Positions 4,167-37,839 of a stretch of 64,000 nt of DNA are shown here, one piece after another. Numbering within the stretch: the stretch's first letter is position 1; each line of letters begins with the position of its first letter. Position numbers and translations under genes: made by a program. The notes beneath the pieces were generated by a model. It worked only from the letters and a program-made list of their open reading frames with translations. It had not been told where the DNA came from and searched no databases. Origin of the DNA: a virus (taxonomy: Duplodnaviria; Caudoviricetes). The DNA lies in IMG/VR virus record IMGVR_UViG_3300018405_000014, positions 1-64,000 of that record; one strand, written 5' to 3'.

Positions 4167-4652
4167 TTACTGATCGACAGGGGTGATCGACAGCAGGATC
4201 ATCAACAAGATCCAGTGATTCTCTTTCAGCAGCTTCTGGAATGAGTCGTAATCGTGAGCGTACTCACGCACGTATTCGGGTACCAGTGGACTTGAGCGCA
4301 CCCATGCCAGCACGTTGCAGAGATGACCGATGAACGACTCTTTCTGCAACTGTACGGCCGGAGTCGCCAGCCACATGTAGGTCGCACCATTCATGTAAAA
4401 ATCCAGAATGGCGTTTTTCATTTCACCGGTGTAGTCTTCCACCTCGACGTATTCGCGCCATAGCTTCTCGACTGCAACGGGTCCACCAATGGCATACCAG
4501 CGAATGCGACGGAGTCGAACCAGGTGTTCGGTCAGGACTTCTTCAAGCCCCAATGCTTCATTGACCGGATCGGAAAGGAAGATCCGTTTCCAATCCTTGA
4601 CGGCTATCAGCAACTTATCCAGGATAAGCTTATCGTTGTCGGCTGTATTCAT
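4167..4652 (-). CDS. hypothetical protein
   Basis: 161-aa ORF coupled by an ATGA overlap to the upstream RNAP subunit gene. Confidence 0.7.
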   Translation of the reverse strand: MNTADNDKLILDKLLIAVKDWKRIFLSDPVNEALGLEEVLTEHLVRLRRIRWYAIGGPVAVEKLWREYVEVEDYTGEMKNAILDFYMNGATYMWLATPAVQLQKESFIGHLCNVLAWVRSSPLVPEYVREYAHDYDSFQKLLKENHWILLMILLSITPVDQ

Positions 4653-5356
4653 GGGCCCACATCATCCAGGTTGTTATCGATCATCATCCCTCGCAACCAG
4701 TTGGCCACGCTGGATGTAGACTTGGTCACACCGCCGCCTGCAGTGACATCTTCCAGAGACGCTTCACCGTTCTCGATCAGTTGCCGATCAAACTCGACCT
4801 GTGCCATGCGGTCACCGGCTCGTACCTTGACTTCTTCCACCAGCGTCTGTTCCAACCCCTGCGATAGCTGTGATTGAAACTCTGGGAAGGAAATCTTAGA
4901 GCCCTTAGACTTACCTGTCACCTGACCGGTCATCTCGTCAACGTGGCGAGTGTTTTCTGGGATCGAAGATTTCTTGGTCAGCATCTGGGCCTGACGACGG
5001 ACCATCATGTCCAGAATCAGGTAGCTATGCGGCGTGAGGAAGGTCTCGTTGGTCTGGGGGTCGGTCAGCCAGATGCGCTCAAAGAGCGGGTGTTTAATCT
5101 TCTCCGCCACCTGCATCAGACTCTCCATGGTGATGCGGGGGTCTTTCAGGTTAGGGGAGTAGAACGGTATGATTTCCTGATGCACTCGCTCATCTTCGGT
5201 ACTGGGTTTAGCCAGTGCCCGAATATACTGATCGAATTCCTCATCACCCATGGCATTGAGGCGCTTCTCGGCCAGATCGGCATTATACCGATCACCAGGA
5301 ATGATGCCTGCCAGCGACTCTACGATGAAGGCAGTGACTTCTTGACGACTGGCCAT
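4649..5356 (-). CDS. virion RNA polymerase beta-subunit C-terminal fragment (phiKZ gp149-like)
   Basis: TGQVTGKSKGSKISFPEFQSQLSQGLEQTLVEEVKVRAGD aligns by eye with the beta C-terminal [20 protein letters not shown]...LQEMLTVKSDD block; lies near uvsX as in phiKZ; start MASRQ at 5356. Confidence 0.8.
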   Translation of the reverse strand: MASRQEVTAFIVESLAGIIPGDRYNADLAEKRLNAMGDEEFDQYIRALAKPSTEDERVHQEIIPFYSPNLKDPRITMESLMQVAEKIKHPLFERIWLTDPQTNETFLTPHSYLILDMMVRRQAQMLTKKSSIPENTRHVDEMTGQVTGKSKGSKISFPEFQSQLSQGLEQTLVEEVKVRAGDRMAQVEFDRQLIENGEASLEDVTAGGGVTKSTSSVANWLRGMMIDNNLDDVGP

Positions 5357-5366
5357 AGCAGAGACC

Positions 5367-5651
5367 TCAGTGAACGACTGGCAGGTTGTGATTGACGATG
5401 ATCGGCAACACCAACCGACCAAAGTGACGCAGCCAGTCACGTGGCGCCATATCATCGACCAAGCAGGTGCGAGCAGATATGGTGGAGGTGTGAAGGCCCA
5501 TCAACTGGTCACGCCAGTAACGGTTGAGCGCAACGATTGCCGCATGGTCATCAGCGGCACTGTCACGAAAGTTCTGGGTAAATCGCGTTGCCGCATGGGG
5601 ATTCTTATCTGCCAACATGTCGATGACGGCAGACACTACAGTATTCGACAT
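5367..5651 (-). CDS. hypothetical protein
   Basis: ORF with GAGGA SD before ATG 5651. Confidence 0.6.
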   Translation of the reverse strand: MSNTVVSAVIDMLADKNPHAATRFTQNFRDSAADDHAAIVALNRYWRDQLMGLHTSTISARTCLVDDMAPRDWLRHFGRLVLPIIVNHNLPVVH

Positions 5652-5722: not shown

Positions 5723-7285
5723 TTAGCTGGCTTTAGCCGCCTGCCGATCCTTGATCTTATCGAGCAACGCCTTAGGCGTCAGCTTAGTACCACTGTCAGT
5801 GCCAGCTGAGGCTTCTTGTATACTGGCGACACCGCCGCTGGCTTTAGCCTTAGCCGAGACAGCTTTGTCGTACCAGTAAGGACGGTAGGTCCCAGCTCGC
5901 ATGTTCAGCAAGTCCATGGTGGAGAGGAACGGGATATCGGCGTAAGTTCCCTTCTCCTCCAGAGGCAGCCAGAAACCGCGCGTATCGAGCAGCAAGTCCC
6001 AATCGTAGCCAGCGGCCACGATATCGCTGTAAAGCTCTTTAGGCGTGCACAGGAGGCCTTCTGGCAGGTCATGCCACAGGTTACGCATCATACACAGCTC
6101 AGCTGTGATGTTCATGGCACGCTGCAGACGAGGATCGGTCTCCAACAGACGACGGGTCGTCTTCCTGGTTAGGTTCTGTTGAGGATACAGATCGAGACGG
6201 TAGTTAGGCTTGCCTTTGGCCTTGTTGCCATCTTTGTCACTGATCCCATAGTACTCATACCCCTTACAGTAGATGAACTCGGTCAACTCGGGCTTAAGTC
6301 CTTCCGACTGGGACACCACCACCTCAAAGGGGATACCCGATGGACCAGACTTGCCACGCAGGTTGACAAGGTTGATGCAGATCAGGTCGGTATCGCCCTT
6401 CAGATCGTCTTCGTCGTCACGCGGGAACTCAGGGGCCTTGTCGGCATCGAGCATCGGCATCAGAGAGACGCAATACCAGCAGTTCGCCGTCAGGAAGCTG
6501 AAGTTCTCCGGTACCTTCTTGAGCTTGAGGTCCCCTTTGAGGAACTTCAGGCGCTTGACGTTCGGCTTGTACATGTCCAGCTGGTATTCTTGTCCGACGT
6601 GTGCTGTCATCAGGATGTGCAGACCAGACCCGCCGGTTACGCCAGTGACTTGGTCGATCAGCTGACTCTTAGCCCCAGCGCCTTTCATCGCCACCATGTT
6701 CAGGTCTTTGTGGCCGACATCGGCCTTCTCGTACATGTTCATGATGCCTTCGGTCTGCAGACCAGACAGTGAGTCAAGGAAGCTCAGTGTCGGACTCGGG
6801 ACCTTGATCAGTTCGCCGGTGTTCTCATCGACAAACGGGGTGGTGACCAGAATGGACTTGTCGTTGCGCCGGTCATTGGCATACTCGCGCATGACGTTCC
6901 ACCACTCGTTACCGTTGTACACGGTGGCGTCGGTAAACAGGAGCCGTCCACCGTCGACCAGATCAGTGCCAAACAGCTCCGGGAACTGTCGAAAGACGTT
7001 CTGAATTCGACCCGGAGACAGTGTGTTCTCCGAATCATGTGCCATCATGATGGCTAACGATACCCGGTTCATCACAGAACCTAGTTGAAATAGCGAGATC
7101 ACGGTTTTGAACATGTTGGGCAAACCGGCTACGCCAGTGAAGTGGTTCAGACCACCGCAGAGGATAGATTCGCCGTGCTTGCCTTTGTAGTATTTACCGG
7201 TTTGGATGTCGAAGAGTGCTCCGATGTTCCACATGGGACGAATGGATGCGGCCTTCTTAAACTTCGCGAAAGGGCTGGTGCTCAT
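5723..7285 (-). CDS. uvsX: RecA/UvsX-like recombinase (phiKZ gp152-like)
   Basis: Variant Walker A GLPNMFKT, DSENT catalytic Glu motif, Walker B SFLDSLS; RecA-fold order of motifs. Confidence 0.85.
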   Translation of the reverse strand: MSTSPFAKFKKAASIRPMWNIGALFDIQTGKYYKGKHGESILCGGLNHFTGVAGLPNMFKTVISLFQLGSVMNRVSLAIMMAHDSENTLSPGRIQNVFRQFPELFGTDLVDGGRLLFTDATVYNGNEWWNVMREYANDRRNDKSILVTTPFVDENTGELIKVPSPTLSFLDSLSGLQTEGIMNMYEKADVGHKDLNMVAMKGAGAKSQLIDQVTGVTGGSGLHILMTAHVGQEYQLDMYKPNVKRLKFLKGDLKLKKVPENFSFLTANCWYCVSLMPMLDADKAPEFPRDDEDDLKGDTDLICINLVNLRGKSGPSGIPFEVVVSQSEGLKPELTEFIYCKGYEYYGISDKDGNKAKGKPNYRLDLYPQQNLTRKTTRRLLETDPRLQRAMNITAELCMMRNLWHDLPEGLLCTPKELYSDIVAAGYDWDLLLDTRGFWLPLEEKGTYADIPFLSTMDLLNMRAGTYRPYWYDKAVSAKAKASGGVASIQEASAGTDSGTKLTPKALLDKIKDRQAAKAS

Positions 7286-10603: not shown

Positions 10604-11077
10604 CTATTGACGGAGTCGTTTCCATCTCTCGACTAAGTCCGTAGAAGGACCGCGAGTCGTGACGGGTCTATCGGTAGTGGTAGGAGTTGGAGGGGGGTTA
10701 ATCGGCTTTCCTGGGGTGTGCTTAGGCTTAGGTGGTGGTTTCGGGTCAGCGGCGTGTGAGGCGGCCGCTACGGCCTCGAGATAGCGAGACTTATATAGCG
10801 TTACCTGCTCACGAAGTAGAGGTACCTCGGTGTCATAGGCGAGTCTCAAACGTGAATTTTCAAATTGGTATTGTGAAATCTGCGCTTCTTGGTCTTTGAC
10901 GATCATGTAGACGTGAACAAAGAACACGGACATGATTACAAAGCCCATCGACATCACGATAAGCGACAAGTTCTCATGGATGAACTGTCGAAACGTACGG
11001 TCGCGCAGCCACATCTCCCTGATGAACAAGAACAGGGCCTTTGCCAATTTGAATAGCGTGGCTATGGGCATGGACAT
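10604..11077 (-). CDS. inner-membrane protein, candidate i-spanin
   Basis: Start MSMPIA at 11077; one TM helix LSLIVMSMGFVIMSVFFVHVYMIV, then a coiled coil and a Pro-rich tail. Confidence 0.5.
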   Translation of the reverse strand: MSMPIATLFKLAKALFLFIREMWLRDRTFRQFIHENLSLIVMSMGFVIMSVFFVHVYMIVKDQEAQISQYQFENSRLRLAYDTEVPLLREQVTLYKSRYLEAVAAASHAADPKPPPKPKHTPGKPINPPPTPTTTDRPVTTRGPSTDLVERWKRLRQ

Positions 11078-11129
11078 ATTCCAAGAGGTTCTTGTCGAAT
11101 AGTGACAAGGGTCGTATGATCCGTTAAGA

Positions 11130-12747
11130 AGTGAGTTATGTGGGTTGATGCGCGTAGCGGTAACCGTCATTGTGCTGTAACCGACTGACGTGACGTTGAC
11201 GGGTGGTGATTTTACCAACGTCAGTTGTAATGACAAATTGGCCACTACTTCTTACAGCTACACGTCCTACATACGCACCGATATATTTACCTCTGGGTAC
11301 TTTGGCTTCGACTATATCGCCGGTCCGGTATCCGCAGACCATAGAAGGACCTTTAGCTAAGGTTCTAGGGAAACCATACTGATCTACCCGACACATCTGT
11401 CTCGAACCATGTCCCAATGCTTTTGCAGTCAACGGTCTCATCCCCTTCGGAATGTATACAATGTCACAGGCACCACCCAGTACCGCTGCATCGATAAAGT
11501 GATCCTTTGGATACCCTTGACGATGACGGTTGTATTTCGTCATGTAGCTTGGACGTTCTACCGAGAGCAGTCCGATTTCACGGACTTCTTGGATCAACCG
11601 TTTAGCTGTGCTGTTGACGGCTGCTGCATCTCTGAGAGGTGGTTTCTTACCTTGGGCAACTCGGCGACAGCCTTTGCGTCTCGCTGCACTGAGCACATCC
11701 CCTTTGCCCTTGAGGGACCATTCCCACTGGACAGGAGTGCGATTGCCCTTGTCGCGGTTACAGGTATGGCAGGACAGGGTCAGGTTGGTGATCGAGTTCG
11801 ATCCACCTTGAGCCTTGGGAGTGACATGTTCAGTCTCCAGACGTTTATCCTTGGAGATACCCGAACAATACTGACAGATGTAGTTGTACCGATAGAGTAG
11901 GTACTCACGGATCTTGTAGCCTTGCAGTGTACCTTGCTGATACCCTTTGCCTTTGATCGACCCGTTGAGCATCTTCTGGGTGTCAAAGGACACATGTTCG
12001 ATCTCGATCTTGGAGACAGGACTCGCTAGACAGAGTCGTTTCACCCAGGTCAGAGTCGTCAGCACCCGGTGCATTAGACTGGGTGGGAGCCATCCGGCGG
12101 GTCGAGTTCGGTTGAGGAATCGGGGTTTACGGTAACGCGTCTTACGATTACGACGGTTACGTCGGCAGGTAGCACGACTGACCAGATTCTTCTTGATTGT
12201 GATACCGCGGTGCTCCAGATGGACACCCATGATACAACGTTCGCCGCGTTTACCTTTGACAGTGACTGCGATCCCGGTGGTCTTGCTGCCCGGATCGATC
12301 TTGATTGCCGTAGGTTGAGGGATGGAGCCCACCGGGTCTTTTAAGATAATGGTAAAAGGGAAGCGTCGAAATACCGCTGCTTTACCTTTACCTAGAAGTT
12401 CTCTAGCTCTAGCCGGATGACAGGGCATGAGCGCTCGGCGTCTCGTGTCAAGGACGAGAACATAGTTAGTAGGTGTTACCTTCATTAGGGTTTCCCCTTA
12501 GTCTATCCGATCTAAGTCGGTGTAACGTGAGCCTCGACGATGTTATCCCAAGGTTTTGTATCCTGACTGCACTAACCCTGCCTCACAGGCTTGTTTAACA
12601 GCTCGGCGTAGAGTCCGGGACTGGCTCGGCCATCCCGGAGTACCTATGTATTCTTGGGTAACGTAGGTTCTATTACAAACCTGGGTCTGGTCAACTAAAC
12701 CTCTATACCAGCAGATTATCTTCGGTTAAAAGGATGGGGCGGTTGAC
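11130..12747 (-). mobile_element. non-autonomous IS200/IS605-family IscB element (no tnpA; right end uncertain)
   Basis: omega RNA plus iscB inserted in an intergenic region between divergent phage genes; no Y1 transposase in the window. Confidence 0.65.
11136..12485 (-). CDS. iscB: IscB RNA-guided endonuclease (IS200/IS605 OMEGA; RRXRR + HNH)
   Basis: N-terminal PLMP-like ALMPCHPARAR, RuvC-I IDPGSKTTG, Arg-rich bridge helix RRNRRNRKTRYRKPRFLNR, GWLPPSL, RuvC-II EHVSFD, HNH CQYC..EHVTPKAQGGSNSITNLTLSCHTCNRDK, RuvC-III HFIDAA. Confidence 0.95.
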   Translation of the reverse strand: MKVTPTNYVLVLDTRRRALMPCHPARARELLGKGKAAVFRRFPFTIILKDPVGSIPQPTAIKIDPGSKTTGIAVTVKGKRGERCIMGVHLEHRGITIKKNLVSRATCRRNRRNRKTRYRKPRFLNRTRPAGWLPPSLMHRVLTTLTWVKRLCLASPVSKIEIEHVSFDTQKMLNGSIKGKGYQQGTLQGYKIREYLLYRYNYICQYCSGISKDKRLETEHVTPKAQGGSNSITNLTLSCHTCNRDKGNRTPVQWEWSLKGKGDVLSAARRKGCRRVAQGKKPPLRDAAAVNSTAKRLIQEVREIGLLSVERPSYMTKYNRHRQGYPKDHFIDAAVLGGACDIVYIPKGMRPLTAKALGHGSRQMCRVDQYGFPRTLAKGPSMVCGYRTGDIVEAKVPRGKYIGAYVGRVAVRSSGQFVITTDVGKITTRQRHVSRLQHNDGYRYAHQPT

Positions 12748-12763
12748 ATCATTTCTTGGAATC
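12490..12763 (-). ncRNA. omega RNA (HEARO-type) of IscB; scaffold from 12747, putative guide 12763-12748
   Basis: Minus strand reads GTCAAC...GTTGACCAGAC..CTACGTTA..ATAGGTACTCCGGGATG..CCAGTCCCGGACTCTACG..TTAAACA..AAAACC..AACATCGTCGAGG, the hallmark HEARO/omega blocks, directly upstream of iscB. Confidence 0.85.
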
Positions 12764-12770
12764 ATATGAT
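12761..12770. promoter_or_regulatory. palindromic ATCATATGAT: candidate back-to-back late (TATG) promoters
   Basis: TATG on both strands between the divergent omega RNA and the 12822 gene; TATG at the start site is the known phiKZ late-promoter motif. Confidence 0.45.
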
Positions 12771-12821
12771 CGTTTGTCTTAATCGACCTTCATAAATTAC
12801 GCCCTTGGGCGGGAGATTAAC

Positions 12822-14177
12822 ATGTATAAGCTAAAGGCATTCAGTGTCATTTCGGCCTTGATCGACAACACGCGGGCTCAAGTGGCTCCGGTGGGTGAAC
12901 TCTCCCCCATGGCGTTGACCTATGCCCGTGAGAAGGAATACCTCAACACAGCAGCTGCTGCTGGTCACATGCTGGTGGTTTTCTCTAGCACCCAGGACGG
13001 CGTGAACCAGCAGGTCGACCCGGTACTCGCCGGTAAACTGCTACTGATCAACAAATGGGCATACGAGCAAGCGCTTGCTGGCACTTTCACACCTAGCACT
13101 GAATCCTTCCGCACGGCTTTCATTCGTCAGTTCGGTACCCAGTACAGTCTCTGGTCTATTGGGGCCATGGTTGAGGCCGGTCGGAACATCTGGCTGCCTG
13201 GTGTCATCGAGGTCCGTGACCAGGCAGATGATACCAAGCAATATAAGCTTTGGTACGCCACTGAGGTCTTTGAGCAGCAGTTCGACGAATACGAGATCAA
13301 GATCGTCCCACCTGTAGAAGACCTCGATGTGTTCTTCCTAGGTCGCGCGGCGGTACAGACTGCTCTGACAGACATGACTCACGACATTGTAGTCGAGAAG
13401 ATCATGGCAGCCAAGGAGGGTTATCCTGAGACCTACCTGCAAGGTGAGATGTTCGAATGGTTCGATCCTGTAGCACCGTTGGATGTCAGTCGTCGTATTA
13501 AGACCTACTGGTCAGTCATCATTCACGGCATCGCCGGTCGTAACATCGATGTGATCAAGGAAGCTATTCGCGACTACATCCTCAGTCATAGCGACCACAC
13601 CAAAGACGAATGGGCTAAACTCTTCCCGGAGATCTTCACCTCCACGGAGTTCGTCTTCGTTCCGCTCTGGGGCAACTACTCGATCACCAACCGTGAACTG
13701 GAATCGGGCCTTTACAGCTCGGTGACCAATGCACTGGCAGGTATCGCACAGCTTAAGCAACTGGTCAAAGGTGAGGGTTATACTCCCGAGTACCTTGAAA
13801 CCAATGCTGAAGTCTTTGGAGCGGCGTTCAAAGCTGTCACTGTGATGGTCGCCGGCGGTCCGCACAACCGCGACGGTATCCGGTCGTTTGTTCAGCGTTA
13901 CACCGATTACATCAACATTGACACCACGAACACAGACTTCGGGCGGATGTCGCCTGAAACCCGCCGGTTCGTGCTGGCGTTGATTGAACTACTTGCTGTC
14001 GCCGAGGAAATGACTCCGGATTCGGCTGTGCCTGTCAAGTTCACTCGACTGATTCGAGATGGTGTCTTGTACGTAGCGTACAACCTCGACCGGTTCCAAC
14101 TGATCGTGGCCAGTAAGTATTCGTATAATGACGCCACTGTAACAAATGGTAGCGACGATGGCGAACCTCAATTCTGA
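12822..14177 (+). CDS. phiKZ-like virion structural protein
   Basis: 451-aa ORF, GGGAGA SD; MYKLKAF N-terminus typical of the jumbo-phage conserved family as recalled. Confidence 0.6.
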   Translation: MYKLKAFSVISALIDNTRAQVAPVGELSPMALTYAREKEYLNTAAAAGHMLVVFSSTQDGVNQQVDPVLAGKLLLINKWAYEQALAGTFTPSTESFRTAFIRQFGTQYSLWSIGAMVEAGRNIWLPGVIEVRDQADDTKQYKLWYATEVFEQQFDEYEIKIVPPVEDLDVFFLGRAAVQTALTDMTHDIVVEKIMAAKEGYPETYLQGEMFEWFDPVAPLDVSRRIKTYWSVIIHGIAGRNIDVIKEAIRDYILSHSDHTKDEWAKLFPEIFTSTEFVFVPLWGNYSITNRELESGLYSSVTNALAGIAQLKQLVKGEGYTPEYLETNAEVFGAAFKAVTVMVAGGPHNRDGIRSFVQRYTDYINIDTTNTDFGRMSPETRRFVLALIELLAVAEEMTPDSAVPVKFTRLIRDGVLYVAYNLDRFQLIVASKYSYNDATVTNGSDDGEPQF

Positions 14178-14198
14178 CTAGAGTTTGTGAGAATTAAA

Positions 14199-14263
14199 AT
14201 GCATCCATTATTGATGGCGGCGGCAGAATGGGCTGGCGCCCTGTCTTAGAACTGGTGGAATAA
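14199..14263 (+). pseudogene. collapsed gene remnant: leader MHPLLMAAA joined out of frame to C-terminal GWRPVLELVE*
   Basis: ATG at 14199 gives MHPLLMAAAE; the frame from 14231 gives GWRPVLELVE-stop, matching the C-terminus GWRPVLELID of the 18908-19552 protein; a terminator follows. Confidence 0.6.
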
Positions 14264-14273
14264 GGAAAGTCGA

Positions 14274-14308
14274 CATAAGGGGAGGGGCAGCTGCCCCTCC
14301 CTGTTATG
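14274..14308. terminator. bidirectional hairpin
   Basis: CATA-AGG-GGAGGGGCAGCTGCCCCTCC-CTGT-TATG; identical stem to 1-29. Confidence 0.7.
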
Positions 14309-14321
14309 TGGTTTCGCGGTG

Positions 14322-14696
14322 TTACCAGTCTGGTGTGAGCGGTAGGCCGTCAGTGCGAGGACACCCAAGACGATCGAGTACCTCATCTTTACTGACTGAT
14401 AGGTATTTGCCTTGGCCGTGTTGCAGCATCTCCAGCACCGTAGTCTCACCTACGTCTTCAACCAGTTCAGCGATCGACATGAGGTACGTCTTACCGTCGT
14501 CTTGGCTTTGTGCAGTAAACAACCCGTACTTCTTCCATGTGTCCAAGTCAGGCTCTAAAGAACGACTGCAGTTTAGCTTGTAACTGAGCTCGTACAGCAA
14601 CGGCAGGTCCCGTCCGGGCCACGACCACTTACCGGGACCGGTACCTGTGGTTGCAGCGCCGATATAGAAACGTGCCGTGGTGGCAATCAGGTTCAT
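14322..14696 (-). CDS. hypothetical protein
   Basis: GAGGAGG SD; 124-aa ORF after sbcC. Confidence 0.7.
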   Translation of the reverse strand: MNLIATTARFYIGAATTGTGPGKWSWPGRDLPLLYELSYKLNCSRSLEPDLDTWKKYGLFTAQSQDDGKTYLMSIAELVEDVGETTVLEMLQHGQGKYLSVSKDEVLDRLGCPRTDGLPLTPDW

Positions 14697-14705
14697 GGTA
14701 CCTCC

Positions 14706-20951: not shown

Positions 20952-23351
20952 ATGAGTACTGTCATCCCACAATACCCTTTCGATCCGACGGGGCTTGCTC
21001 AAAGTAACAAGGTAGTTGAGACTCAGGCGATCAAATCGCGTGGTACGTTCGATTACTACTATGTCGTCCCGCGCGTCAGCCCGTTTTATGCCGAAGGCGC
21101 TGAACTGCGTCTATATCCGGTGGGCACCAGCACCGCTAACCCCCTGGGAGGTCAGCTGCTAGTAGAAGGTGTCCACTATAGTTTCGGATACCATTTCGCT
21201 CAAGCATCACATACCATTGGAAAGCCGGTGTACGGCGCGATCACCTTCTTCGATCGTACGATGGAAGGTCAACTGCGGATGGTACTGCAGACGGTCGGTG
21301 GTGATTGGGTTCTTGACGATCAGGCAATGAATGAGCTCCTGCTCAATACTGCCTACAACCCCCGCATTGCTACCTGGGAACAATTGGTTGAATTGCCTCA
21401 CCAGTTCCCTGTTGTAAACCATGATTTCAGTGTCGATGATTTTGTCGGCATGAGTGAAGTCGTCGATGAACTAGGAGATATCGAACGCGCCATCCTTCAA
21501 TCTAACGAAGGTGGTCTGCAGCAACACATTGAAGACCAGGCCAACCCACACCAAGTCTCCAAGATTCAGGTTGGTCTCGGACTGGTCGATAACTACCCGA
21601 CTGCGACCATTGCAGAAGCCACAGGCGGTACCGCCAACAACCGCTTCATGACGCCGTTGCGTACCAAGCAACTGATCGACACCGTGGCCACTGCAGCACT
21701 GGTGGCTCACCAGGGCGATTATACCAACCCGCACCAGGTGACAAAGACACAGGTCGGTCTGGGTAACGTACAAAACCTGGCCCTGGCCACCCAAGCGGAA
21801 GCCGAAGCGGGCGCCTCCCATGCGCGTTATATGACGGCACTGCGCACACGCGAGGCCATTATCGCTATTGTCGGTAACCGTCTCGACGGCCACATTGGTG
21901 ATTACGCCAACCCGCACCAGGTGACGAAAGCCCAAGTGGGGCTCGGGAATGTCCAGAACATCGGGATCGCTACCGATGTCGATGCATTGTCAGGCCTTGG
22001 CGACAGTGGGGTGATCACACCTCGACTCCTTAGCCTTGTGTTGAGTGAGACGGTAGGTGAAGGTGTCACCGATCACATTCAGGACTCTGCAAACCCCCAT
22101 GGTGTCACCAAAGCACAAGTGGGTTTGGGGAGTGTTGAGAACTTCGGGATCGCGACAGAAGTAGAGGCTCGGGAAGCCACTGCTGCCAACAAGTACATGA
22201 CCCCACTGGCCGTCCGGCAGGCAATCAATGCTCTGGTCGGTGACAGTTCCAACGCTCACGTCACTGACTTCGGTAACCCGCATGCCGTTACTGCCGCCCA
22301 GGTCGGCACGTACGATCGTGACCAGATCAACCTTCTGTTGAACGATAAGTTGGACCTGGCCGATACGGCAGGCGATTCGGCGCGAGTGTTCGGTCTTAAC
22401 CAAGAGGGTCTGGCAGCATGGATTGGGTCCGTCACCTCAGGTGATGCACTGAAGTTTGATGGCAAGACTTACAATGAAGTCAAGCTCGACATCCTCGCAG
22501 GTAAAGCTGCAGACTCTGCTCGACTTGATGGTAAGTCCTACGCTGACATCTTGCAACAGATCTCGGAAGCAACAGGTAACAGCTCGTTTAAGTATGTTGT
22601 AGACGGCATCCCCATGGTCGAGGACGACCTCGGCGATAGCATCGAAGCGCCTACAAACTGGTGCCATATCGGCTCCATGTTCCAACGGTCAGCCTTCGCC
22701 GATGCCGACCTTACGATACTTATCACAGGGGGTCGAGTTGACAATATAGACATTCGCCGTCACCACTCTATCCTAGTCGAGATTTCCACAACCAACGACT
22801 ATGAAAACGGTGATGTAGGTGCCGCCTATGCTCCTCTCCTACTAGGAGACTGCGTGGTCAAGTACCTCACTCCACCAGAGCGATCCATCGACGTTGGAGT
22901 TGTAGTGTCTGATGTTGAAGGTAGACCGTGTCTTGATATTTACGTTAAGAGCACTGGGGTTACTTCACCGTGGGTCGTGACTGAACTGACCGATGGGCTA
23001 TTTGTCCAGAAGGAGCGGGGCCCTATCATTGGGGTTTCTGATCTGATTACGGTAGAGCCTGCTGGGATTGTCTATCCGCGTATTCTCCTCGAAGGAACGG
23101 CTGAGATCCAGGCGCTTCAGGAGTTCTCGCAGCGTAATGATAACCCTCATGCCGTCACCAAGGCCCAGGTTGGATTGGGGAGCGTGGATAACTACGGAAC
23201 GGCATCTACGGCAATGGCCATCACCGGCACTGCTACCGATAAGTTCATGACCCCCGCATCTACCACGGCTAAGGTCAACGACTCCATCGGCATTCTCTGC
23301 GATGAGCTGATCCTTGTCATGGATGATGCAATGGCTAACCTGTTCTCATAA
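20952..23351 (+). CDS. tail fibre protein (phiKZ gp145/146-like) with NPH-VTKAQVGLG repeats
   Basis: YPFDPTG N-terminus; repeated H..D..NPHQVTKAQVGLG.V.N...A...FMTP units. Confidence 0.8.
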   Translation: MSTVIPQYPFDPTGLAQSNKVVETQAIKSRGTFDYYYVVPRVSPFYAEGAELRLYPVGTSTANPLGGQLLVEGVHYSFGYHFAQASHTIGKPVYGAITFFDRTMEGQLRMVLQTVGGDWVLDDQAMNELLLNTAYNPRIATWEQLVELPHQFPVVNHDFSVDDFVGMSEVVDELGDIERAILQSNEGGLQQHIEDQANPHQVSKIQVGLGLVDNYPTATIAEATGGTANNRFMTPLRTKQLIDTVATAALVAHQGDYTNPHQVTKTQVGLGNVQNLALATQAEAEAGASHARYMTALRTREAIIAIVGNRLDGHIGDYANPHQVTKAQVGLGNVQNIGIATDVDALSGLGDSGVITPRLLSLVLSETVGEGVTDHIQDSANPHGVTKAQVGLGSVENFGIATEVEAREATAANKYMTPLAVRQAINALVGDSSNAHVTDFGNPHAVTAAQVGTYDRDQINLLLNDKLDLADTAGDSARVFGLNQEGLAAWIGSVTSGDALKFDGKTYNEVKLDILAGKAADSARLDGKSYADILQQISEATGNSSFKYVVDGIPMVEDDLGDSIEAPTNWCHIGSMFQRSAFADADLTILITGGRVDNIDIRRHHSILVEISTTNDYENGDVGAAYAPLLLGDCVVKYLTPPERSIDVGVVVSDVEGRPCLDIYVKSTGVTSPWVVTELTDGLFVQKERGPIIGVSDLITVEPAGIVYPRILLEGTAEIQALQEFSQRNDNPHAVTKAQVGLGSVDNYGTASTAMAITGTATDKFMTPASTTAKVNDSIGILCDELILVMDDAMANLFS

Positions 23352-23419
23352 CACCCTGGACGCTGCGCTGGAGACGGCGCAGCGTCATTATCTGATAGAC
23401 CCAGACACTGGAGTTTTCC

Positions 23420-24994
23420 ATGAGCGTGCCACCCATTATTCAATATCCGCTCGACCTTACCGGAACGTCAGCGACAAACGCCATTGTAGGTGAAAGTCGG
23501 GACATTGCCAACCTCAACGAGCGGGTCTTCGTGCCCAAAGCCGGACCATTCTACACCGACAGCTTCGTCATTCGTAACGCCGAAACCGGTCAGCCCCTGA
23601 GGCCTGTGGATGACTATGTTCTGGCACAACCGTTTTCTCAAGCGTCGTTGCGCAGCGGCAAGGATGTTCAGTGCGCCGTTGTCCTGAAGACTTCTGTCCC
23701 CATCAGCGTTGAGATGGATTATCAGGTTGTCGGGGGCGAGTATTCCTGGAACCTGGCGGGCTTGGCCGACCTCATTGCCGAACTCGATCTGGATGACCGC
23801 CCTATCAAATGGGGTGCAGTTATTGGTCGACCGACCATGTATCCGCCAGCACCGCACATGCACGACATTGGCGACACCTACGGGTGGGAATACGTCGTGT
23901 GGCAGTTGGAGCGTGTGACGTATGCGATCCTCACAGGTGACGAGGCCTCTCACGAAGAGCTGCGCCAACAGATGCAGACGCTACATGCCCAGCAACAAGC
24001 GATCATCGATGCTCTGGATGCGCGGTTTGTAGGTCACACCAACGACAAAACCAACCCTCATGCCGTCACCAAGGCCCAGACGGGACTGGGTAGTGTCGAC
24101 AACTATCCGACAGCTAACGCCAGTGAGTCGCTGGCCGGGGTCGCCAACAACCGCTTCATGACACCTCTGGGAAGTGCATCGCTGGCAGACCGCATCGCCA
24201 CCGAGCGGGTCAGTGACCATGAAGCCAAGAAGACCAACCCGCACCAGGTAACCAAAGCGCAAGTCGGCCTAGGAAACGTGGATAACTACGGGACAGCCAC
24301 TCAGGCACAGGCCGAATCTGCATCGGTTACCGACAAGTTCATGACGCCTCAACGGACTTATCAAGCCATCATGATCCATGCGGGTGTTCTACTGGATGCC
24401 CACGTCAACAACAAGCAGAATCCGCACAGTGTCACCAAAGCACAGGTCGGGCTTGGAAGCGTCGACAACTATGCCACCGCCAGTCAGGCTGAAGCCCTGG
24501 CGGGTGTGGCCACCAACCGCTTCATGACACCCCAGCGAGTCAAACAATCGATTGACGTCCATGCCGGCAACCTGATCAATGCCCACGTCACCAACACCAG
24601 TAACCCACACCAAGTAACGAAGGCTCAGGTCGGTCTGAGTAACATCCCCAATGCCGTCACTCGCGAGCGAAGCCTTGACAGTAACACCACCCTGCTACTC
24701 GCTGGTGCAATGCGCGATCACCTTATTTCGGGTGACCACGACAACCGGTATGTTCGTCTGAACACTCAGCAGAACACCAGTATGCGGATCGTCAACGGTA
24801 CACTGCAGTCGTATGTCGGTGGTTACTGGCGTCAGGTCTGGCCGGCGGTGTGGAGTAACCACGTTGCACAGGGTTACAACGACCCCTACCTTGGAGAAGG
24901 TACTGGGGTGCAGCTGTTGTCAGCAGGCGGACGCCTGTACGCCACGGTCAACGGTAATTGGCAGCAGATCTGGCCTTCGCAGTGGGCGGATTAA
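23420..24994 (+). CDS. tail fibre protein A (paralogue of 36406-37839)
   Basis: YPLDLTG N-terminus, NPH/VTKAQVGLG repeats, duplicated C-terminal G.W.Q.WP..W motif. Confidence 0.8.
   Translation: MSVPPIIQYPLDLTGTSATNAIVGESRDIANLNERVFVPKAGPFYTDSFVIRNAETGQPLRPVDDYVLAQPFSQASLRSGKDVQCAVVLKTSVPISVEMDYQVVGGEYSWNLAGLADLIAELDLDDRPIKWGAVIGRPTMYPPAPHMHDIGDTYGWEYVVWQLERVTYAILTGDEASHEELRQQMQTLHAQQQAIIDALDARFVGHTNDKTNPHAVTKAQTGLGSVDNYPTANASESLAGVANNRFMTPLGSASLADRIATERVSDHEAKKTNPHQVTKAQVGLGNVDNYGTATQAQAESASVTDKFMTPQRTYQAIMIHAGVLLDAHVNNKQNPHSVTKAQVGLGSVDNYATASQAEALAGVATNRFMTPQRVKQSIDVHAGNLINAHVTNTSNPHQVTKAQVGLSNIPNAVTRERSLDSNTTLLLAGAMRDHLISGDHDNRYVRLNTQQNTSMRIVNGTLQSYVGGYWRQVWPAVWSNHVAQGYNDPYLGEGTGVQLLSAGGRLYATVNGNWQQIWPSQWAD
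23621..23672 (+). repeat. 52-bp exact direct repeat shared with 36607-36658 (fibre A/B)
   Basis: CTGGCACAACCGTTTTCTCAAGCGTCGTTGCGCAGCGGCAAGGATGTTCAGT occurs in both fibre genes. Confidence 0.85.
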
Positions 24995-36320: not shown

Positions 36321-36405
36321 CCATCGATGAGGGCGTCGCCTTGCGTGGTCTCCCTCGATCTTCTGCTCTCTGGGCGGAAGATCACTTACCTGCTTGGAGT
36401 TCACA

Positions 36406-37839
36406 ATGTCAATTCCACCAATTATTCAATATCCCTTGGATCTCACTGGCACCTCGCCAACGAACCACATTGTTGGGGAAGTCCGTGATATCCTGACCGA
36501 TGCCAATCGGGTCTTTATTCCGTTGGCCGGTCCGTTTTATGCCGACAGTTTCACCATCCTCGACAACGAAACCGGTATGCCGCTACGCCCTGTGGATGAT
36601 TATATCCTGGCACAACCGTTTTCTCAAGCGTCGTTGCGCAGCGGCAAGGATGTTCAGTCGGCGGTCGTGCTTCGTGTATCAGCGCCGATCAGTGTCAAGC
36701 TTGACTACCGTGTAGTCGGTGGTGAGTATTCCTGGAACCTCGATGCGTTGCAGGACCTGATCACTCAGTTGGATCTGGATGACCGCCCTATCAAATGGGG
36801 TTCTGTTCTGGGTCGTCCAACAGCCTATCCAGCAGCCCCTCACATCCATGACATCGGTGATACCTTTGGCTGGGAATATGTCGTCTGGCAACTTGAGCGC
36901 ATCACTCAAGCGATCATGGTGGGCGATGAAGCCTCGCATGAAGAGATCCGTCAGCAAATCCGGATTGTTGAAGAGCAGCTTATTTCGCTCATTGGCAGTT
37001 TGGACAATCGACTGGTCACGCACGTTAATGACAAAACCAACCCCCATGCCACGACCAAAGCACAGGTCGGGCTTGGAAGCGTCGACAACTATGCCACAGC
37101 CACGGCAGCTGAAGCCCTGGCGGGTCTGGTAAACAACCGCTTCATGACCCCAGCGCTGGCCAACACTCTGGCACAACGCATTGCAGCCGAACACGTAGCA
37201 GACCATGAGGCCAAGAAGACCAACCCCCATGCGGTTACTAAGGCGCAAGTGGGTCTGGGTAATGTGGACAATTACCTCACGGCTACCCAAGCACAGGCCA
37301 CTAATGGCACCGCGAACGACAAGTTCATGACGCCCTTGAGGACCAAGGAAGCGATCAATGCCATCGCCGGGAATTTGCTGCAGGCGCACATCAACAACAC
37401 CAGTAACCCACACTCTACGACCAAAGCACAGGTCGGCTTGGGTAATGTGGACAATTACAGCACCGCCACCGCCGAACAGGGTATTTCCACTACGATCTCC
37501 GATAAGTTCATGACGCCTCAACGGACTTATCAGGCCATCATGTCGCACGCCGGAAATGCCCTGAACAGCCACATCGGAAATCTGAACAACCCACACCAGA
37601 CCACCGCAGCACAAGTGGGCGCATACACCACAAGTCAGACCGACACCCTGCTGTCCAGGAAATTGGGTTCGGCTGAGACAGCGGTCAATGCGAATCGTCT
37701 GGAAAACACCACCCGTGCATCAATCCTGTCGGATGCTTACGCAGCTGTCGGAAGCATGGGTAAGCGCAACGTGTTCATCTCCACGGTCGATCCAACCGGC
37801 TCTCAAGGTGCGGTAGGTGATATCTGGCTGACTTACTGA
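36406..37839 (+). CDS. tail fibre protein B (paralogue of 23420-24994)
   Basis: MSIPPIIQYPLDLTG N-terminus nearly identical to fibre A; NPH repeats; C-terminal FISTVDP....GDIWLTY. Confidence 0.8.
   Translation: MSIPPIIQYPLDLTGTSPTNHIVGEVRDILTDANRVFIPLAGPFYADSFTILDNETGMPLRPVDDYILAQPFSQASLRSGKDVQSAVVLRVSAPISVKLDYRVVGGEYSWNLDALQDLITQLDLDDRPIKWGSVLGRPTAYPAAPHIHDIGDTFGWEYVVWQLERITQAIMVGDEASHEEIRQQIRIVEEQLISLIGSLDNRLVTHVNDKTNPHATTKAQVGLGSVDNYATATAAEALAGLVNNRFMTPALANTLAQRIAAEHVADHEAKKTNPHAVTKAQVGLGNVDNYLTATQAQATNGTANDKFMTPLRTKEAINAIAGNLLQAHINNTSNPHSTTKAQVGLGNVDNYSTATAEQGISTTISDKFMTPQRTYQAIMSHAGNALNSHIGNLNNPHQTTAAQVGAYTTSQTDTLLSRKLGSAETAVNANRLENTTRASILSDAYAAVGSMGKRNVFISTVDPTGSQGAVGDIWLTY

Follow-up and report, generated by a model that had tools for sequence, protein, structure and literature searches.

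The prevailing view is that OMEGA nucleases serve to bias inheritance in favour of the elements that encode them, and there is little direct evidence from nature that such elements pass from genome to genome when no transposase is involved. IscB, from which Cas9 descends, is an RNA-guided nuclease of this kind. The window analysed here, a stretch of 64,000 nt, is part of a 116.7-kb virus record that is 44% complete (IMGVR_UViG_3300018405_000014), and the record holds one copy of IscB. The original prediction described an intact IscB-omega RNA locus in a phiKZ-like jumbo phage, possibly immobilised or domesticated for homing or for competition between phages.

An intact IscB and omega RNA in a phiKZ-like phage

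The locus consists of the following features:
10604-11077, minus strand: downstream gene of 157 amino acids, orthologue of DT01 PA10_00075, with its ATG 9 nt beyond the insert
11087-12759, minus strand: whole insert of 1673 bp, comprising 12 guide bases, the omega RNA scaffold, iscB and a 49-nt tail
11087-11135, minus strand: 49-nt tail between the stop codon and the insert end, containing a hairpin (11091-11109) and lacking the GGGGTTTCC-type left end of most relatives
11136-12485, minus strand: iscB coding sequence, 449 amino acids, with an AAGGGGA ribosome-binding site upstream
12522-12747, minus strand: omega RNA (HEARO) scaffold, Rfam RF02033, directly upstream of iscB and on the same strand
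12822-14177, plus strand: divergent gene of a virion structural protein, phrog_3293

The 449-residue product matched the NCBIfam guided_IscB equivalog with 376 bits (cut-off 175) and the Pfam RRXRR model with 226 bits, and HNH models were matched too. Profiles and structure matches showed the parts expected of an IscB: a PLMP/RRXRR region at the N-terminus, a split RuvC into which the HNH is inserted, and a TAM-interacting part at the C-terminus. D64, E163, H329 and D332, which we take to be the RuvC catalytic residues, and H220 and N243, presumably those of the HNH, were invariant together with four Zn cysteines in all 27 aligned sequences (the window IscB and 26 homologues). The AF2 model had a pLDDT of 82, and its ten best PDB matches were all IscB or IsrB complexes. 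The PLMP-like, RuvC-I/II/III and HNH residues that had been claimed from reading the ORF are thus borne out by profiles, alignment and model. The ORF and every catalytic residue are likewise intact in a relative with 82% identity. The window locus encodes an intact IscB with complete catalytic residues, for which RNA-guided, TAM-dependent cleavage is predicted from the sequence. A public protein collection starts the window IscB at Met20 (430 residues, dropping 12429-12485), by which the first strand of the N-terminal domain is lost; IscB family models start at residue 9, i.e. before Met20.

A full HEARO/omega scaffold had been proposed upstream of iscB, with a HEARO-model search as the check. 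The search gave 108 bits against a gathering score of 83 and covered model positions 1-211 of 211, in agreement with the proposal. The fold of the omega RNA region was no better than that of shuffled sequences (z -1.2).

The neighbours of the locus are an RNase H-like gene, two small genes, the virion structural protein, SbcC, UvsX and an RNAP beta-subunit gene, with the RNAP beta-subunit PHROG at 4649-5455. The nearest deposited phage is Pseudomonas phage pPa_SNUABM_DT01 (DT01), whose virion protein is 70% identical. Homologues of chimallin and of nvRNAP gp74 are encoded by all three complete syntenic relatives (DT01 and two IMG/VR genomes), which supports the phiKZ-like context named earlier. 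Probes for chimallin and nvRNAP gp74 found no match in the record itself, which says little for a fragmentary record 44% complete. The window also contains, at 20952-24994 and 36394-37839, three paralogous virion/tail proteins with repeated modules (phrog_2163 and many tail-fibre families).

Filled and empty alleles

Four public sequencing runs were compared with the window. A 579-nt contig of run X7 matched 10809-11086 with 8 differences and then continued at 12760-13060 with 4 differences, the flanks being 97-99% identical. Its joint omits exactly 1673 bases (11087-12759) and has no ambiguity (both = 0); this empty allele is a single contig of low depth (depth 4). The filled allele was found in a 30,099-nt contig of run X3, with 141 differences over 5178 nt, and in run X5, where contigs identical to the insert tile it. 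Members of the 90% IscB cluster of the protein collection lay on three contigs (244,243, 31,161 and 30,099 nt). Altogether, three independent assemblies have the filled allele (X3, X5 and the 31,161-nt contig). Both flanking genes were also found, 96-99% identical, on contigs of 250,515, 248,929 and 49,850 nt, which have no member of the IscB cluster, an indirect absence read from protein clusters. Thus the insert is present in some near-identical phages and absent from others.

More distant relatives agree in gene order. In DT01 and three IMG/VR relatives, which are syntenic, only 83 bp separate the two divergent genes, and all four lack a HEARO. No IscB was found in the three complete relatives (DT01 and two from IMG/VR). 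Relatives retrieved from viral contigs and, with the flanking protein, in a single metagenome scan were only 64-77% identical, and a search with the exact flank pattern gave 0 matches.

Comparison of the carrier phages gave 2 differing residues of 430 in IscB, against 27 of 1084 and 23 of 758 in the flanking proteins (2.5-3.0%). The contrast between IscB and its flanks is significant at the protein level, the only level compared (Fisher p = 0.0065 and 0.0024). Such low divergence fits recent spread of the cassette, and strong purifying selection on IscB could give the same contrast. The comparison of related phages that the original prediction suggested as a check has thus yielded an empty allele, the X7 contig, which favours homing. 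Its suggestion that the element may be immobilised or domesticated is not supported; the presence/absence polymorphism in near-identical phages and a divergence below that of the flanks are in line with recent spread.

The X3 contig differs from the window at a further place, where 437 unrelated letters replace 14178-14703 (526 bases, including a 124-residue gene at 14322-14696). It amounts to another small cassette exchanged between phages that are nearly identical.

A guide that matches the empty allele

The features of the guide and its target are as follows:
12748-12763, minus strand: putative 16-nt guide, with 12748-12759 in the insert and 12760-12763 in the flank
11077-11086, plus strand: left part of the split protospacer, 10 nt
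12760-12765, plus strand: right part of the split protospacer, 6 nt, in which C12763 mismatches guide base 14
12766-12770, plus strand: putative TAM ATGAT, overlapping a plus-strand TATG (12765-12768) upstream of the virion gene
12763-12766, minus strand (that of iscB): TATG, a putative nvRNAP start site, with G12763 as guide base 1

The earlier end coordinate of 12763, which allows a guide of 16 nt, is reasonable. The statement that the guide derives from flanking DNA holds for 4 of the 16 bases and fails for the other 12, which lie inside the insert. Since the insert starts 12 nt outside the scaffold, these 12 guide bases travel with the element.

When the empty site was reconstructed, the guide (12763-12748) matched its plus strand at 14 of 16 positions, 12 of them contiguous, in a register that spans the insertion point (10 nt on one side and 6 nt on the other). 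No other place on either strand of 62.3 kb matched as well; three places ranked next, with 12 of 16. A match in the junction registers has a chance of P ~8e-6, and no other target of the guide was found in the virus record. In the uninterrupted site, ATGAT comes in register directly after the protospacer. The uninterrupted site would therefore consist of a protospacer followed by an ATGAT TAM, and the insertion splits its own target. Because the guide matches the empty site across the insertion point and beside the TAM, the filled allele would be protected and the empty allele would carry the target.

On the non-target strand, 6 nt separate the insertion point from the TAM; cuts of this strand at positions 5-7 are described by Goltsman et al., in the part of their paper available to us. 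The same part reports for a related HEARO enzyme that mismatches are poorly tolerated at positions 1-13. Guide base 14 (G) faces C12763, which is 3 nt from the TAM and within this mismatch-sensitive zone, so that alleles with C at 12763 may escape cutting. C12763 is also the complement of the +1 G of the TATG. Four distant relatives have G at the position aligned to 12763, and DT01-like phages match the guide at 9 of 16 positions, as read off the alignment. Inverted pieces of the guide after the stop codon were also considered as a signal and rejected: a 9-nt piece occurred in 2 of 97 loci (the window and L019), in a test without power.

A putative start site at the first guide base

Yakunina et al. 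(PMC4666361), in the portion available to us, give TATG as the start rule of the phiKZ-type nvRNAP. A TATG of this type is placed at -16 relative to the scaffold and ends exactly on guide base 1. As it occupies 12766-12763 on the iscB strand, transcription would begin at guide base 1. A pattern search among the other fetched loci found TATG at the same spacing at 0 HEARO starts. In the empty allele, the same TATG stands 13 nt upstream of the ATG of the 157-residue gene, so the insert would fall at +4/+5 of that transcript.

Comparison with canonical IscB elements

Related IscB loci in IMG/VR were retrieved with an alignment query; 130 of the 142 candidate stretches were IscB relatives, and 37 deposited phage records matched IscB. 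According to the available text of Goltsman et al., >16% of the fragments that encode HEARO were assigned to viruses or prophages. In the available portion of Meers et al. (2023, 10.1101/2023.03.14.532601), the transposon right end bounds the HEARO region, with the guide beyond the element and the TAM directly adjoining the left end; tnpA is a neighbour of about 1.5% of iscB genes, and the TAM of GstIscB is TTCAT on the top strand. Four clear same-genome pairs of our retrieved loci (six of the seven listed) became alike precisely from scaffold base 1 onward, and the remaining pair, L060/L064, was uninformative for the boundary. The bases after the tail were ATGA in 11 of 12 related loci and ATGC in one, which agrees with the published TTCAT TAM when the latter is read on the iscB strand.

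The window insert resembles non-autonomous IS200/IS605 IscB elements (e.g. ISGst-type), as far as the available sources describe them, in its IscB family, the HEARO upstream, an ATGA-type TAM, the lack of a nearby tnpA and a target at the empty site. Y1 TnpA was not found in the 116.7-kb record (44% complete), and within that scope the earlier statement that there is no tnpA is supported. In the canonical elements of those sources, no guide base belongs to the element, the TAM is directly adjacent to the far end and the protospacer is uninterrupted. In contrast, the window insert begins 12 nt outside the scaffold instead of at scaffold base 1, with 12 of 16 guide bases inside it, and its target on the opposite strand is split 10|6. 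The flank beyond the tail is TCTTGG instead of ATGA, and there is no GGGGTTTCC-type subterminal hairpin at the left end. Judged from its ends, the window insert is not a canonical IS200/IS605 insertion.

The tail does contain a hairpin of 6 bp (11091-11109), four bases within the insert end, the fold of which was no better than that of shuffles (z -1.0). The earlier observation of no strong terminal IS200/605-type hairpin needs amending in this detail. Short inverted repeats are present at both insert junctions. A simple inversion or transposition path to the present junctions was attempted, and none could be reconstructed. The tail (11087-11135) weakly resembles the target site on both strands, the best score being reached by 146 of 2000 shuffles and the two-strand sum by 32 of 2000; this likeness is marginal.

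Homing and its alternatives

On balance, the intact IscB-omega RNA cassette is probably a homing element that needs no transposase and is active, or was until very recently, in a group of closely related phiKZ-like phages, as an RNA-guided gene drive of natural origin. Transcription by the phage's own polymerase would start at the TATG, the G of which becomes guide base 1, and the transcript would comprise the omega RNA with its 16-nt guide, followed by the iscB message. During co-infection, IscB would enter the phage nucleus and cut empty alleles, which would then gain a copy of the cassette by recombining with the filled genome. The full version of this proposal, a natural transposase-free drive in a nucleus-forming jumbo phage that carries its own guide, sits inside its own protospacer, has its 16-nt guide set by TATG and spreads between co-infecting genomes in the phage nucleus, is tentative, and we regard it as conceivable and short of probable. 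If it is true, surviving empty alleles with C at 12763 would be drive-resistant.

The cassette might instead be a stranded relic. A non-autonomous IS200/IS605-type IscB element would have inserted canonically at the palindromic ATCAT|ATGAT in the other orientation and later been flipped or re-inserted with part of its old flank, so that the guide match would be a historical trace and spread would be over. After canonical insertion on the plus strand the guide would be TATTCCAAGAAATCAT, which shares 14 of 16 bases with the one now present, and the TAM would be ATGAT. The short inverted repeats at both junctions, the absence of the left end typical of most relatives, the seed mismatch in the guide and the weak likeness of tail and site (146/2000 shuffles for the best score, 32/2000 for the two-strand sum) are in line with this history. 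However, a relic would not readily explain an ORF and catalytic residues that are intact here and in the 82%-identical relative, an IscB less diverged than its flanks across carrier phages, or a TATG exactly at -16. We consider the relic rather unlikely, and it concerns mainly the origin of the cassette, because a relic can still home.

It is more doubtful still that the cassette is kept as a weapon, for the damage it does to co-infecting relatives without it, irrespective of any copying. Such a role would resemble that of the intron endonuclease known from phages that form a nucleus; the available part of a review (PMC13565253) cites Birkholz et al. 2024 for interference competition in which an endonuclease acts between viruses that infect together, and the target here lies in the promoter region of a virion gene. 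But that target exists only in very close relatives, DT01-like phages matching at 9/16, and a cut allele repaired from the filled genome would receive the cassette, which amounts to homing. An assembly chimera or host contamination, the former named in advance as what would refute the locus, is extremely improbable: no supporting point was found, the same junctions occur in contigs from the runs of separate studies and in three assemblies of the protein collection, and the closest IscB in species-representative genomes is 52% identical.

Relation to known homing systems

The proposed homing of the cassette resembles that of phage homing endonuclease genes, intron endonucleases and synthetic CRISPR homing drives, in which a nuclease gene lies inside its own recognition site and the filled allele is immune. 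It differs from homing and intron endonucleases in recognition by an RNA guide, and from synthetic drives in being natural and IscB-based. The available part of the 2026 review (PMC13565253) cites Mears et al. [quoted passage not shown] The window cassette is similar in this respect, whereas the TnpB-IS605 drive, as described there, employs TnpB, plasmids and a canonical flank-derived guide. The same part of the review calls such homing theoretical for phages, and we found no paper on IscB homing in phages.

IscB in phages is already known, as the 37 deposited phage records show. What is new is the architecture, i.e. an element-borne guide, a split target and a presence/absence polymorphism. 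The locus combines filled and empty alleles in near-identical phages with a guide reading the empty allele and a defined putative start site, which makes the homing idea testable. It bears on how an RNA guide could become fixed in an element, a step toward the nuclease-encoded guide of Cas9 systems, and on whether the phage nucleus admits an RNA-guided nuclease.

Two other loci were observed among those retrieved. A phage contig of about 100 kb (L087) has two HEARO RNAs 3.3 kb apart, at 2751-2966 and 6089-6304 (the same in L088), which points to two IscB elements side by side. A second chimallin-encoding phage, of 220.6 kb (G003), carries an ordinary-looking element, with a HEARO at 2798-2999 of L180 and an IscB, 55% identical, at 176-1633 of L181; this element follows a same-strand gene and has a terminator-like hairpin at its end.
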